The notes under the pieces: model-generated
Seen by the model: the letters and a program-made list of their open reading frames with translations, nothing else
Database searches by the model: none
What the model was told of the DNA's origin: nothing
In this document: in pieces, positions 1 to 58,585 of the stretch
Numbering within the stretch: the first letter of the stretch is position 1
Layout of the letters: each line of letters opens with the position of its first letter
NCBI GenBank assembly: GCA_944372445.1
Contig: CALVZE010000004.1
Coordinates: 1 to 58,585, forward strand
Length of the DNA: 58,585 nucleotides
Source of the DNA: an uncultured Clostridia bacterium
GTDB taxonomy: Bacteria > Bacillota > Clostridia > Christensenellales > UBA1242
Reading direction: 5' to 3'
Program-made: the position numbers and the translations under genes

Positions 1-3000
1 CAAAGTTATATTCTTCAAGTCGAACATCTCTACCGTAATTTACAAAGACATCACCATAGGAATATGCGCTCAAAATACTACTTTTTTCCGTTGAAGTTTT
101 CGAAACACCAATGACGCCACCAACTGTAAGGTTATACCCTTCGCTAGCATCAAACACAACCTTTCCGCCAAAACCAGAAGTTCTAACTTTGTATGAAGTT
201 GTTTTCGCATCGGCAATGACACCACCAACCACAACATTTTCGCATTTTCTAAATTCGTATGAGCTTTTGTTTATATAGTTTGCAATTGCTAATTTGTTAA
301 CAGTTTCACTGCTTACACAACCAATGACACCACCGACATATATATCTCCAATTGTATTTCCAATAGTTACAGAATCATTTGAAGTCATTGGTTTCACATC
401 TTGACCCGTGCCAAGCTCAACAGATGAGGCTCCGCTCGTTGCACCAACAAGTCCGTAATAAATGTTTGTTTCAAATTGCGACCTCTCATTGGCAACCATA
501 TACAAAGTATTATTTGTTTCAAAAGATTCGGCGCTTAATGATCCATTTAAATTACCTATAAGCGAACCAATATATGCTTTGTCCCATGCAAATGTCCCAA
601 TATAATCTGGACCCGGCACGCGCACATTGGTTTTTACCGTGTTATCAATGGAAATTAAGTTCATTTCCGCCTGTCCAATAAGGCCTCCAATATAAGCCGT
701 CGTTGCACTGCCATTTTTTAATATAGTCCTTGGAGCCTCATGTGTTATTTTTCCTGCTACATTGAAGAAAACCTCACGCTCAACATTAGTGCTTATTGAC
801 ATAGTTCCACTGCCTGTCACTTTACCAAAACCTAAGCCTACATATTCCGTTCCTACACTTAGTCCTTGATTTATGGTTATGCCATTAATAGGATAGTTAT
901 CATCACTTAAAACACCTTCAATAACAGTGAAATTTGCTCGTCCAAAGTAAGCGCCAACATATAATTCTTTAAGAGCGTCGGCAACTATTGGGTCATTAAG
1001 CGAAATTGCAATATTATAGTCATTTTCAAGATACCTATTTAAAGATGTCATTCTAAATGTAGAAATATTGGCGCTGTCATCAATGGAGCTGTCGCCTGCA
1101 AGCAGTCCAAAGAATAATGAGTATGATTTATCCGAAGTTCTGTCAAAATCGACCTTAATTGTGGCTTTATTTATTAGACTTCCCGAGCTACCTTGCGTCT
1201 TTTCTTCTACTGCAAAGTTGATGTTAGAAATCGTCATGCCCTTATATGGCGAATTTTGAACCATTCTGCCCGCAAGAATTCCAAAATACTGACTTTCACC
1301 ATCCAAAAGGTCTGATGCTGAATCGTTGAAAAGAATATCACTTGCGTTAGTGTCAGCGTCTTTATCTCTTCTAAAGATGATGTTTATATTTAGGAAATCA
1401 GAAGATACCGCTTCTGCTGTAAGTAGTCCCGCCATGCCAGAGGTGTCAGCTTGCAAGGTGAGAGAGCTATTAAGGTGAATATCAAGATTGGTAAATGTTG
1501 CATTTGTCGCTGTTCTAGCCACCAAAAGCGAAGTGTAGCCTGACTTGGTTGTTTCTATCTCTTCATTGACATAGTAGATATTTAGACCATTCAACTCAAA
1601 GCCATAGTCGACGCTTTTGAAGATAGGTTGGTCTAGGATTAGTCCAACATTTTCGCCTGCCGTGCCACCGAGAACATACCCACCTTCACCTTTTACCACA
1701 ACATCTTGCGATGAGATAACGCCCTCACTTCGTGTCTTCATATATTCTTCATAGGAAATGAATTTTCCAGAGAAATTCGTTGCCCTGTCCATTGCGTCAA
1801 TAATCGGCTCGCCGTTTTCATAAGAACCGGTGAGATTGACATCTGTGTAGCCACCGCTTGGATTATCCGGTTCAATCATACCACGAACGACAACTGTCAG
1901 CGAAGAATTGCTGTGGATAGCCTCCATAACACTGCGTATGCTCTCTTCATAAGCATCCAAAAAGACAACATTTGTGCGAGGTGTCAAAACAATTCTTGGA
2001 TAAAGAGTGTTAACTTCATGCTCCCAATAGTTAGGGTCCCAATCATTTCTTAGGAAATATTGGTTCATCTTGGTATACCCTAGCTCCATTGTCGGCAAAT
2101 CTTTCATCCATTCAACTTGCATAATTCTGTCATTGGTAATTTGCGAAGTTACTGTTTCATCAAGGCTAGAATTTACCACTTTTATCAAGGAGTCAGTGTA
2201 ACCAAATATATAGTTATATCTAGTTGCTAGATTAACGGTCACATCGTTTTGAGCGAGATACAAAGCAGAAACGGCAATGCTGGTTGTTGGAGATTCTCCA
2301 CCTGCCAAACTGCCACCCGAAACAACATCATAGTGACCATTCAAATTATCTAAAAGATAGATATGAGATGGCGTTTTAAAAGATATGTTTCCGCCGTCCA
2401 TAACATCGGTTTCAAAACCACCAATAAGTCCAAAAAGTTTACTCATATTGTCAGTGTTGTTTTCATAATACGGCATGGTGTTGACATTTTTAAGCCCAAC
2501 AATGCTATCGCTTGTAATCAAGCCTATCGCTCCACCGCCCTGCATGTTTGTTGTTGTGTTTAAAACACCACTGAAATATGTTTCGTTCATGAAGTAAGAA
2601 ATTTGACTGCGAGATAGCATGGTTTCTGAGGTGTAATAATAATCAGCATTGACAGCACCCACAAGTCCGCCAAAATAACCTTCATAGTCATCATGATTTG
2701 ACATATTTGAAACGACATTCAATCTGTTGTATGAGGTTGTGATGTAACCACCACCAGCATAGCCTACAAGTCCGCCAACAAAGTAAGGATTATTGTCTTT
2801 GTTTACTTTGTCATTTTCTTCCGCTGTATAAGAGAAGATACTTGTTTGTCCACGCTCTACGGTTGTTCCGCCATTATAGTAAGAATACATATTTTCTTCA
2901 ATTGTGTCTTGCAGTTCTCTTGAATACTCTGCATAGCTAGCAAACAGTCCGCCATAACTTTCACCAACGATACCGCCAGCATATAGATTTTTAGCGGTGA

Positions 3001-57600: not shown

Positions 57601-58585
57601 GTTATACACTGTTAACCGAAACTGACTTGATGAATGATACCAACACCTCAATTAGACTTGTTAAAAATATTTCAGGCTCTATAATTAGAAACACTTTCTA
57701 TATAAGAGATACGGGTTCGGAGTATAGTTTTAAATATAAAATTCAAGTGTATGACGCCTATGCCACCGAAATCGAAGGAGAGGAAAGAACCCCGATTAAA
57801 ACAATTTACTTTATGTTAAACGACCAAATCTCCACACCTAACACCACAACACAGACTACAGACCATCAATTTTATCTAACCACAAATGGTAGCAATGTTA
57901 CACAGGCGGTGCTTGGACTTGATGGAAACACAAAAGTAGATTTCTATTCAAGAGTGACGCTTATATATGGTGATACTTCTGACAACTTCTTACCTATCAA
58001 ATACTATATAAGCACAGATAATGTCAATTTTGAAGAGATATTAAGCGGAACAATCATCTCCTGTCCAGAAGACACTGACAGCATCACCTACTATCTTAAA
58101 GTGTGGTATGATTTAGACTATATCATGAAAAATGAATACTACAACCAGCTTTCAAATAGCGATTATATTTTTGAGATTGTGCCAACAAATCGCGTTTACT
58201 CCTTCACACTTTCCTCCACATTACAGTCCGCATTTTATGTAGAACTAACTGATGAAAATGGAGAAACTCGCATTGTTAATCGCTCAGGAAACACCTATAC
58301 CTCTCCTGATGGCTCATATCAAAATCCTAGTCACTATATCGTAAATATCAACTATATCGACCGAAATTCTAGATTAAGGATTGTCACAAACACCGAGCAA
58401 TATGTTTATGCAGAAGAACAAGAGCATTACACTGACGCAGACAATGTTAGAACATATATCTATCACATTTCAAACTTAGACTATATCGCAAACAATCCTA
58501 ATATCAGCGGGATACCTAAATTTGATACCTTTATAGCAATCACATTCATTGAACCGACAGACAGCATTGTGGAAGGCTTCTATTC
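51630..58585 (+). CDS. Giant secreted/surface protein (>2,318 aa, 3' end beyond window) with bacterial Ig-like repeats
   Basis: ATG 51630 after RBS GAGGTG. Signal peptide MKTLKSFMLTLASAFMLVCGLVLFLPQKETVTA. The frame is still open at the last base (DSIVEGFY). Ig-like boundary motifs: KIDTNPPSV, VYDEAGNHSVQIFIIDDTSP, LDREAP, ESDLAGNLTIY, FTDNYGNTY. Confidence 0.9.
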   Translation, partial: MKTLKSFMLTLASAFMLVCGLVLFLPQKETVTAETNLVESVENNVQDYVGIEASGDAVSQELIKDDIFLYNGDNTLSVYLKTNGDTVNPNGGQIYDYVYYPDEDNLSMFYFYRINGVNLSINGVEQSLEQEETYKFNPPSNLTFENLPDVIPENFNINFGNTSDTNTFKITDDSGNLIEGLYTLQVEIDLWQALDGRSDQQESVFDNKTDETLTYSFFVLKENSYIVNQRPVFTQNNFDSTTTISTTVNPNYGNYLYSNYSYAGNKIASLTYDQTKYDVAITKELNSTYQFATLSYIAENDNGETSGYTLDGDNIVRYQKNGSRTTIYFYDIGNYSVSFEAVATFSTASNVYNKYSLSALADITKDIMVYVYGYQATHIDYDNNRNFVEFKTFENSSGAFDGSYYHSADITADFLASEPSFGQNTSGSDTIGSETFVYTNVLNYLNQQDEENNYLITPETTNQALVRFNLNATALLSGNVRSYVYSTSALPGYQSLAGSKLQGQELYYTTYNGGSISDAGTYIFILAYTFDQFYTTNAQRDANTIFYQVFFFKIDTNPPSVNIKNESGKTIYSDTYTNESVTISNPNANNVHDKDVTVQVYAYDYVNNQYLSKYGGRYGVDMRSLNNNSDTLTLTENAHYTIRLYYTNEINDTDIDIVNNRIIKQFYFTIDKIDIENVSARNVSLISGSSRYNILRGVEGISTNQDIIVSWLDKASSAETFAYYRYFPIVSENFYQEGLNTSRILQEFLNGTMGMSYMPINYSIDLSSEGKWTRYAGNTNGQTSTTTSQYVLSETGMYVFDVYDEAGNHSVQIFIIDDTSPMFALQTGSEFSLIPSYHYISEASTLYWGDYKTIAINDANGAINFRNISDINHVTEANANYAIYKDYNGNTSLDIYKAFYNILYRNSYIQYINCSALSAPTNRAYLTFEIDDLIYETPIGSNNYQQATNKNSISLNDDREYTYRILIRDESNTRYDYASSTTSLIQYTNYYSARQNIIVSHDTSEFRLFYEETTNQGEENVYLSSNLMMVSEDGDTLTTYLNPINVNKLIYVSFIPTVAEETTVQIDSVKVDYYAYVDKEVEVNDVTYYYKELSDERTSTTELYNYSEGQSTETNIEELFINNKGVTNEGMYVITRTYNTDVTPTLNEQDYLTRKYVLYVDRNEVISSPVTKGEGNLSHSESLVGGEIFISMYDSGDNTSLVITFPNSPDGNLNSTTLYDSNENSILSTNKLPLRVYVPTYKYTMYAQKVPKQVPAFDDEGKPIMENGVQTTKPSETEYYYEVVYNSDNKNAYYNLNALESDLGTTDLITDEKGNVYIEEYLIFAEIYKNPTDGVNIPLYRTSKTFNDPNPANADSENGFLTFYDSNGNPLTALTEEGTYRVVVYQGYRSDSSFRQLATFTFNIENTSPNFEARTTQRGRALNSTTENGMTIYHTNQNNIQLIWSKPRDSYTAEIDTDNFKVSVNGGATETMNMTELFVNSGQSQNSYYGNLNLNRLGVSEHGNYIDITMQYKNHSDEYYDVITKRILLDREAPDTNIDGLVHKVIDNFYIEDFLTYEDFRVKENINGDIVTNSYETSYNTSSISGTFRYYSYAVEGSYLSTLKSTSKTESYNIYYREVKGKYGEEYNETTPETFLESNFDLISTLNSFTSDTYYEIVESDLAGNLTIYTIFVVDYNTVSDDYALIEYKQNQTTDYTFSKSDYVLTKQSSHNALLSVYAKPGLELTNFNYFGNVWINFRVDKYVNEVLVTNYYLASPWLAKGKVYQIVGTANNSLSLQEVDIDELIDGSKDTRFKDSITVYDSTRGTTESFYFNTRNSALSASMSNNSEREYISISQPSDSAIESTVTAQTYLTYIKIYTPAITGVATEEVYYEASNQLGYANGFLSNEFVTVTTSGSAITFELIVRNLTRDTRIIYEFTDNYGNTYSEIHLYQETTGYQEVDSNNILYAFYDKRDNNLTYLTEDGFAYTYNERKYKIEIYEAANNDELNSYTLLTETDLMNDTNTSIRLVKNISGSIIRNTFYIRDTGSEYSFKYKIQVYDAYATEIEGEERTPIKTIYFMLNDQISTPNTTTQTTDHQFYLTTNGSNVTQAVLGLDGNTKVDFYSRVTLIYGDTSDNFLPIKYYISTDNVNFEEILSGTIISCPEDTDSITYYLKVWYDLDYIMKNEYYNQLSNSDYIFEIVPTNRVYSFTLSSTLQSAFYVELTDENGETRIVNRSGNTYTSPDGSYQNPSHYIVNINYIDRNSRLRIVTNTEQYVYAEEQEHYTDADNVRTYIYHISNLDYIANNPNISGIPKFDTFIAITFIEPTDSIVEGFY

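Follow-up and report, generated by a model that had tools for sequence, protein, structure and literature searches.

The window analysed here, 58,585 bases long, is the entire contig C4 (CALVZE010000004.1) of an uncultured gut bacterium of the UBA1242 type. It holds about 36 genes and is an ordinary syntenic segment of a chromosome in a genome of about 1.1 Mb, with a VirB2-like pilin gene of a type IV secretion system (T4SS) and two genes encoding giant surface proteins, one at each end, set among housekeeping and sporulation genes (Table 1). The pilin is part of a chromosomal T4SS that is near-universal in the family, and giant surface proteins are tied to the same system. The original prediction, drawn from the letters of the window, had described a spore-forming clostridial lineage with a contact-dependent envelope programme, epibiotic or predator-like, in which cell-wall or nucleotide precursors are taken from another cell.

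The genome amounts to 1,124,571 bases in 37 contigs with 35.7% G+C, and its completeness and contamination are 99.74% and 0.21%, respectively. Twelve relatives of the same genus measure 0.9-1.3 Mb (together with our own, these are the 13 genus genomes referred to below), eight genomes from other families of the same order reach 1.6-3.2 Mb, and the 81 genomes sampled from the family itself all lie at 0.7-1.6 Mb; the sample represents at least 58 genera and the family counts at least 66. The closest named relatives of the Mfd protein encoded in the window belong to uncultured gut Clostridia metagenome-assembled genomes and to Candidatus Caccovivens (64-65% identity), which its describers placed in Christensenellales, family UBA1242 (PMC8035907). 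From genome size and from these Mfd relatives we infer membership in the same family.

The T4SS pilin and the giant surface proteins

The window pilin passes the cut-off of the PF18895 model (T4SS_pilin, 26.6) with 31.6 bits, and scores 32.9 bits in a scan of the whole genome; the earlier reading as a domesticated T4SS-type pilin thus holds, the gene being part of a family-wide chromosomal T4SS. Its best NCBIfam match, at 38.7 bits just below a cut-off of 40, is NF045849, the Mbov_0395 pilin-like protein of a Mycoplasma integrative and conjugative element (ICE) module that also includes NF045889. Unlike the genes of that module, the window pilin stands among housekeeping genes and not in an ICE, and the real ICE of this genome carries a separate pilin copy. 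An ortholog occupies the same place in the relative G008, where the neighbours are orthologous too. The presence or absence of pathways was queried throughout with Escherichia coli K-12 proteins, by blastp on the open reading frames (ORFs) and tblastn on the raw DNA. A pilin of type IV pili was considered as an identity for the window gene and excluded, as these searches detected no homologue of HofB, HofC or PpdD in the genome.

Two sets of T4SS genes are present in the genome. The first, that of the ICE on contig C2, combines a MobL relaxase with VirD4, a surface protein of 1,488 aa, a pilin, VirB6 and VirB4; VirB4 of this type is only sporadic within the genus. The second, core set is scattered among housekeeping genes on several contigs: VirB4 lies at the start of C6, where it overlaps the gene of a giant of 3,725 aa with rpoB and rpoC behind it, the VirB6-like gene adjoins uvrC on C1, VirD4 (176 bits) adjoins lepA on C11, and the pilin of the window adjoins prfA. 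The order VirB4-giant-rpoBC is common to our genome and G008. Core VirB4 occurs in 13 of the 13 genus genomes with 67-84% identity, a range like that of Mfd, and VirB4 was found in 79 of the 81 family genomes (56 of 58 genera), mostly in single copy and with 53-83% identity; it is missing from five of the eight larger genomes of the same order. Concomitantly, PF18895 pilins were detected in 76 of the 81 family genomes, often 5-10 kb from VirB4. In the genus of the window the cluster has been scattered, whereas four other genera hold their T4SS genes in one locus flanked by gap, fba or cell-division (dcw) genes: VirD4 is oriented divergently to the one or two pilin genes, after which come large proteins that contain a VirB6-like region, then VirB4 and further large proteins. 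The search for relaxases near the core genes consisted of Pfam scans of selected ORFs and a BLAST search with MobL as query: Pfam gave no relaxase family in eight cluster ORFs from three genera, and the MobL of the ICE has no paralogue in its own genome by BLAST.

The core T4SS is a vertically inherited, near-universal and single-copy chromosomal trait of the family, and "domesticated" is a fair word for it because of its family-wide presence and its orthologous placement in conserved synteny. The idea that these genes descend from one ancient ICE remnant was rejected, since they are single-copy, family-wide and located at conserved housekeeping sites, and since the true ICE represents a separate and sporadic second set. 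That ICE-like region (C2:97,000-126,082) combines restriction-modification genes and the MobL relaxase with its complete second T4SS set. Besides, at three loci (L110, L112 and L116, in G044, G052 and G055, respectively) the T4SS cluster has a ComEC-like gene, orthologous to C25_9390_11405, some 7-15 kb away, a proximity that may be due either to chance synteny of housekeeping genes or to a functional connection with DNA uptake.

A third of the window had been ascribed to two giant surface proteins, and this is what we observed: the two genes cover 19,317 of 58,585 bases (33%), both run off the contig, and both products begin with a signal or lipoprotein peptide. They are rich in N, S, T and Y and contain about 3.5% lysine, compared with 9.5% in the ordinary proteins of the genome. 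Pfam assigned no family to either protein, whether searched whole or in halves, apart from one sub-threshold GLUG match in giant 1; the recognised repeat or anchor domains (BIg, SLH, LPXTG, RTX) gave no Pfam family, and self-BLAST detected no internal repeats. At the level of the genome, 11.9% of the DNA is occupied by 13 lysine-poor ORFs of 1,000 aa or more, among them a 12,714-aa gene and a gene of about 6,320 aa split between contigs C9 and C19. The two parts of the latter (C9:24200-37024 and C19:17725-23946) overlap by the assembler's 77-nt k-mer, and the joined product has a C-terminal membrane anchor. It is precisely in the giant genes that the assembly breaks up. Contig-end overlaps join C9 with C19, C26 with C34 and other pairs, while neither end of the window could be joined in this manner.

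The ortholog of giant 1 in G008 is 6,606 aa long, displays 35% identity and lies in conserved synteny, followed by orthologs of genes of C5; because of this synteny, the C-terminus of giant 1 probably continues in C5_3_1928. A stretch of about 900 aa in giant 1 is paralogous to the VirB4-adjacent giant C6_1619_12796, and orthologous giants are 34-35% identical, whereas the neighbouring housekeeping proteins reach 67-86%. These comparisons identify giant 1, at the sequence level, as a paralogue of the giant behind VirB4 that evolves fast.

Giant 2 belongs to a family for which we detected 90 full-length, collinear homologues of 2,640-2,890 aa, devoid of Pfam domains and ending, in the alignment, in a transmembrane segment and a basic tail. 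A near-identical copy has 2,763 aa, and about 440 of the last residues are missing in the window. Collinear homologues lie directly beside VirD4 and the pilin in G024 (profile E 4.6e-79) and G055 (E 2.9e-22), and in the window prfA, prmC and a KwaA-like gene separate giant 2 from the pilin, at a distance of 4 kb. Judged by homology and gene order, giant 2 is a member of the T4SS cluster and of a membrane-anchored family of about 2,770 aa. Both the T4SS membership of the pilin and the linkage of giant 2 are new relative to the published accounts of the family.

The giant 2 profile retrieved nothing from the sequences of the PDB. An AlphaFold2 model of residues 32-762, of moderate confidence (pLDDT 68.7), displays a chain of beta-sandwich domains, and Foldseek returned the Sap S-layer protein as top match (E 1e-4) and the giant adhesin SiiE with a probability of 0.96. 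Giant 2 is thus predicted to be a chain of immunoglobulin-like (Ig-like) domains, and in this respect it resembles SiiE of Salmonella (2yn5) and Sap of Bacillus anthracis (9g93, 6qx4), in which such a chain is likewise carried by a secreted protein. It differs from them in that its sequence resembles no PDB chain and no Pfam domain, and in having no detectable internal repeats, a fixed length and a link to a T4SS, with a C-terminal transmembrane anchor in place of type I secretion system, SLH or LPXTG features.

Table 1. Genes and other features of the window, in order of position.
Feature	Position	Strand	Basis or remark
Giant 1, lipoprotein-type surface protein, at least 4119 aa	2..12358	-	Lipobox LLASC; C-terminus cut by contig end
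SpoIIID sporulation transcription factor	12703..12987	-	PF12116, 92.4 bits
Acyl carrier protein, kept though fabH/D/F absent	13029..13259	-	45% identity to E. coli AcpP
M23 peptidase, SpoIIQ-like	13467..14087	-	PF01551, 76.8 bits; best NCBIfam match SpoIIQ, 77.8 bits, below cut-off
YwmB-like DUF1779 protein	14094..14546	-	PF08680, 38.9 bits
LPG_synthase_TM-family membrane protein	15600..16988	-	PF03706, 72 bits; syntenic in 31 relatives
Conserved lipoprotein, 655 aa ("PrsA-like" gene)	17094..19061	-	No Pfam, NCBIfam or PDB match
Mfd transcription-repair coupling factor	19151..22252	-	Sequence and relatives
Peptidyl-tRNA hydrolase (pth)	22249..22752	-	37% identity to E. coli Pth
Truncated GlmU-derived protein, 274 aa, probable pseudoenzyme	22761..23585	-	Hidden Markov model, profile and synteny
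DUF4363 and YetF/DUF421 gene pair	25234..26390	-	Domain annotation
SpoVB-like MOP flippase	26491..28020	-	TIGR02900, 216 bits, below equivalog cut-off
RecD2	37108-39345		Upstream of ComFC-like gene
ComFC-like protein, double zinc ribbon and phosphoribosyltransferase (PRT) domain	39305..40096	+	Downstream of RecD2
VirB2-like T4SS pilin	47048..47443	+	PF18895; own ribosome-binding site and terminator (47456-47488)
prfA and prmC, prmC with N-terminal membrane domain	47911..50662	-	Between pilin and giant 2
KwaA-like membrane protein	50758..51327	-	NF041622, 62.9 bits against a cut-off of 100 (sub-threshold)
Giant 2, orphan C-terminally membrane-anchored surface protein, 2320 aa in window	51624..58583	+	Homolog family

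Biosynthetic losses and the cell wall pathway

No biosynthetic operon was found in the 58 kb of the window, in which every ORF was annotated or inspected, as the original prediction had remarked, and the losses extend to the whole genome. Curated hidden Markov models (HMMs) and control genomes were used for prs, pyrH, gmk, murA and glmU only. The prs gene, which had been reported missing from its usual place, is absent between the GlmU relic and pth and also genome-wide: BLAST and tblastn gave nothing, and the HMM gave only a PRT-domain match of 25.6 bits. Prs proteins above the HMM cut-off are encoded by seven of the 81 family genomes compared with 14 of 14 controls. PyrH was detected by HMM in none of the 13 genus genomes, whereas all eight larger relatives and all 14 controls have it. 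Gmk was absent by HMM from our genome, G003 and G008, and the other ten genus genomes encode a divergent copy (109-142 bits) that stays under the family cut-off. Neither blastp nor tblastn gave a match in the genome for further nucleotide genes (purC/M, guaA/B, pyrG, upp, apt, ndk, nrdAB), for enolase, fabH/D/F and all eight ATP synthase subunits (atpA-H), for dxr, ispE, coaA/E, folP, nadC and talB, or for amino-acid genes (dapA, leuA-D, ilvIH, argG, thrA-C, hisA-D/G/H). Considered as a means of importing nucleotides, the ATP/ADP translocase PF03219 gave no match in the genome, nor did it in any control genome, which makes this negative uninformative. Lost by the standard routes are both de novo and salvage nucleotide synthesis, and the DXP isoprenoid route is lost too. 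Still present are Adk, Tmk, NrdDG and a tandem double cytidylate kinase (Cmk), and the organism retains replication and translation.

Since prs, purine and pyrimidine synthesis, pyrH, fatty-acid synthesis, the tested amino-acid pathways, ATP synthase and cofactor pathways are lost, their products must come from outside, and gene content thus argues well for a dependence on external nucleotides, amino acids and lipids. The predicted reliance on outside nucleotides is borne out across the whole genome by the losses in prs, pur, pyr and pyrH. The tandem Cmk (C7_23953_25314, C7:23953-25314, + strand) is a 453-aa protein with two P-loops, and it may have taken over the phosphorylation of uridine monophosphate (UMP) in this PyrH-less genus. 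Besides, aragorn detected 32 tRNAs for 17 amino acids and found no tRNA-His, tRNA-Gln or tRNA-Tyr; these probably lie in assembly gaps, several tRNAs being found at contig ends.

The cell wall pathway, on the other hand, is encoded. GlmS, GlmM, MurA-G, MraY, Ddl, MurI, FtsW, an FtsI-type penicillin-binding protein and UppS are present genome-wide, and the E. coli queries also found CdsA, PlsX and the acyl carrier protein. The remark that murA is missing from its usual locus is correct for the window, in which none was found, including positions 14094..14546, which we take to be the site where Bacillus gene order would place it; an intact MurA is encoded elsewhere, on contig C26, with 474 bits and above the cut-off. 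A stand-alone GlmU acetyltransferase domain (C33_2178_2798) matches GlmU positions 267-445 with 208 bits and recurs in nine of the 12 genus relatives, G002, G008 and G012 being without it. The uridyltransferase step is probably performed by an RmlA-like sugar-1-phosphate nucleotidyltransferase (C1_4424_5278), and the two activities of GlmU appear to have been split into separate genes. This is the only step that depends on an enzyme of unproven specificity. With a complete precursor line in its own genome (glmS-glmM-split GlmU-murA to murG, with mraY, ddl, murI and uppS), the theft of cell-wall precursors from another cell is not supported; for this part, a complete pathway elsewhere in the genome was the very finding that the original prediction had named as its refutation.

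The GlmU-derived protein of the window is indeed degenerate, as had been noted from its sequence. It scores 35.6-44.5 bits against TIGR01173, about a tenth of the cut-off of 366.85, and across the family its orthologues occupy the matching, ancestral glmU site, in 34 related loci with 43-87% identity, a conservation that indicates purifying selection. A profile built from 15 orthologues matches solved GlmU structures solely over residues 223-331 (E 7e-18), which correspond to the helical arm and the first beta-helix turns, and the protein ends near GlmU position 335, before the region of the acetyltransferase active site. Where GlmU presumably carries an N-terminal motif of the G-x-G-T-R-M type, the relic reads LIVKTKSEFS, the position being judged by eye. 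When compared to bifunctional GlmU (TIGR01173; PDB 4aaw, 1hm0), the relic still lies upstream of pth and mfd and retains the helical arm together with the first left-handed beta-helix turns, while the N-terminal nucleotide-binding signature is replaced and the C-terminal acetyltransferase half is missing. These features mark it as a conserved, catalytically stripped GlmU descendant, which may be retained for some non-enzymatic role.

Lifestyle of the lineage

The loss of biosynthesis, the retention of sporulation and a suspected dependence on a partner are already published for UBA1242. Begmatov et al. 2025 (mSphere, PMC12306168) described genomes of roughly 1 Mb or less (0.67-1.61 Mb in their comparison set) without amino-acid, nucleotide and lipid biosynthesis, parts of glycolysis, respiration and ATP synthase, noted that sporulation genes are unexpectedly kept, and proposed that these bacteria are probably obligate symbionts or parasites in the manner of Patescibacteria. 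A 2026 study presents UBA1242 as uncultured, genome-reduced specialists of the chicken caecum. Our genome agrees with the former account in gut origin, a size within about 0.7-1.6 Mb, biosynthesis losses, incomplete glycolysis, the lack of an F-type ATP synthase and kept sporulation. Type IV secretion, pilins and giant proteins are mentioned in neither study, and PMC12306168 is also silent on the GlmU relic and the retained peptidoglycan precursor pathway. Of the original prediction, the genome-reduced, sporulating and dependent lineage therefore stands and matches PMC12306168, while cell-wall theft falls away and the predator-like part has no specific support.

The closest parallel to the core T4SS is that of Patescibacteria, which is chromosomal, mostly relaxase-less and derived from the MPF-FATA conjugation machinery of monoderms (Quinonero-Coronel et al. 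2025, PMC12102498). In that system VirB2-like pilins are recognised by the PF18895 model and VirD4 is often far from virB4, whereas ordinary Gram-positive T4SSs are without such PF18895 pilins (PMC12102498). A report cited in PMC12102498 describes the Patescibacteria T4SS as essential for the epibiotic growth of Ca. Southlakia epibionticum. The UBA1242 system is likewise VirB4-centred, chromosomal and near-universal in a genome-reduced lineage, with PF18895 pilins, VirD4 often remote from VirB4 and no relaxase found beside it in the ORFs searched. It differs in residing in a true Firmicute, where it coexists with sporulation and without type IV pili, and in being tied to orphan surface proteins of 1,800-6,600 aa, while no adhesins or giants are detected in Patescibacteria. 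This likeness is drawn from gene content and layout.

By analogy with these epibionts we favour a contact-dependent lifestyle, to which we assign a probability of roughly 0.55. The giant proteins would hold the cell against the surface of a partner, and the T4SS would form a conduit through which the cell gains what its own pathways cannot make, nucleotides above all; the conduit would function in the way put forward for epibiotic Patescibacteria and their relaxase-less T4SS, and spores would carry the organism between hosts. Several points weigh against this reading. Coupling proteins such as VirD4 typically serve to export substrates, not to take them up, and DNA exchange of a conjugation-like type, or adhesion to food particles or mucus, would fit these data as well. 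The genome encodes ComEC and ComFC, and DNA uptake could proceed without the T4SS. The tandem Cmk might replace PyrH, which would soften the nucleotide argument, and most of the pathway absences are based on E. coli queries alone. That no relaxase accompanies the core genes is a result of Pfam scans of selected ORFs and of MobL BLAST only, and a normal ICE, equipped with a T4SS and a MobL relaxase of its own, resides in the same genome.

A more specific version of the contact-dependent reading is tentative: UBA1242 would consist of spore-forming epibionts or parasites of gut bacteria, whose domesticated, ICE-derived T4SS draws phosphorylated nucleotides or DNA from the partner. This T4SS, with its VirB2-like pilins and apparently no relaxase, would be partnered with the conserved, membrane-anchored Ig-domain protein of about 2,770 aa and with fast-evolving giants of up to 12,700 aa, and would form the organelle of uptake. 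If true, it would be a Firmicute counterpart of the Patescibacteria lifestyle, of independent origin and combined with endospores for transmission. The epibiotic, T4SS-dependent lifestyle would then have a second, independent origin inside Firmicutes, the same phylum from whose conjugative elements the Patescibacteria-type systems presumably derive (PMC12102498).

It is also possible, if rather doubtful, that the organism is a free-living scavenger of the gut lumen, importing nucleosides or nucleotides, amino acids and fatty acids via unrecognised transporters. The giants would in that case be adhesins for mucus, food particles or host epithelium, or an S-layer-like coat, and the chromosomal T4SS would serve DNA exchange, uptake or release between relatives. 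With its wall and sporulation machinery complete, the cell is structurally autonomous; ComEC, ComFC and RecD2 are present, the window includes a GPH-type symporter and a P-type ATPase, and the best fold match of giant 2 is the Sap S-layer protein. A scavenger lifestyle has moreover been left open for similar lineages (PMC12306168), although in the same work standard transporters for sugars, amino acids or peptides were not found in UBA1242. Without phosphoribosyl-pyrophosphate (PRPP) synthase, UMP kinase and, in our subclade, Gmk, imported bases and nucleosides would however be unusable by standard routes, and a central function is suggested by the retention of a single-copy T4SS in 79 of 81 genomes that measure only about 1 Mb.

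We consider it improbable that the giants and the T4SS deliver toxins or lytic effectors so that the cell feeds on the released contents, which was the predator-like side of the original prediction. T4SS-mediated bacterial killing does exist in other lineages (reviewed in PMC12102498), VirD4 would fit the export of effectors, and the giants evolve fast, as expected in an arms race; however, toxin, immunity and lytic domains were found in none of the eight cluster proteins examined (no Pfam families), no VirB1-type hydrolase was seen beside the core genes, and nothing separates such a predator from a benign epibiont. An incomplete or chimeric bin, with pathways on unbinned contigs and T4SS genes from misbinned mobile elements, might be suspected from the 37 contigs, the three missing tRNAs, the two giants cut at contig ends and the one real ICE, but was rejected as very improbable given the completeness and contamination values, the same losses and T4SS genes in dozens of independent genomes (some in 3-10 contigs), and the conserved synteny of core T4SS genes between housekeeping genes.

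Genome-reduced UBA1242 are common in animal and human guts, uncultured, and rise with age in chickens, where a negative link with body weight was reported (PMC13155120). Two results, namely that these bacteria build their own wall and spores but neither make pyrimidine nucleotides nor phosphorylate them by the usual route, and that nearly all of them retain a chromosomal T4SS tied to giant surface proteins, offer concrete handles for cultivation and imaging.

Other genes and features of the window

Sporulation genes are retained, as had been claimed: besides SpoIIID, the SpoVB-like protein, the SpoIIQ-like M23 peptidase and the YetF/DUF4363 pair of the window, Spo0A is encoded outside it on contig C1 (234 bits).

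The 655-aa lipoprotein was found after mfd at the same position in 37 related loci, and had been taken for an enlarged PrsA-like foldase. Profile searches against Pfam, NCBIfam and PDB sequences detected no rotamase or SurA domain in it. A true PrsA with Rotamase and SurA_N domains (L060) holds this position in a distant relative; hhalign aligns the two proteins over the signal peptide alone. The AlphaFold2 model (pLDDT 83) has no Foldseek match at E <= 1e-3, and PrsA, SurA and PpiD structures (7l75, 2kgj, 1m5y, 8zht) are weak matches only, with E 0.6-7. The PrsA-like identity was therefore dropped, none of the five approaches giving a significant link, and the label, which goes back to position and weak hints, is not supported by sequence.

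The KwaA-like gene, a sub-threshold match to a Kiwa defence protein, is divergent from giant 2, and no KwaB-like partner was seen. Upstream of the pilin, a 61-aa ORF (46517-46702, + strand), below the size reported by ORF lists, has a strong ribosome-binding site, a hydrophobic N-terminus and an N/G-rich tail with the end GGCCCGNTRQFI. Between the pilin terminator and the prfA stop codon, the gap is filled by an element of about 400 nt (47493-47888) with nested inverted repeats (47493-47506/47875-47888 and 47533-47570/47833-47870), which could be a miniature inverted-repeat transposable element (MITE)-like insert or a structured RNA; Rfam returned no family at gathering score for the window, this element included. 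Finally, a Cas9-like ORF of 1,095 aa (C19:4770-8057) was recognised by eye elsewhere in the genome from its N-terminal sequence (MKYRLALDIGIASVGW), and, if it is real, CRISPR defence is still afforded by a genome as small as about 1.1 Mb.

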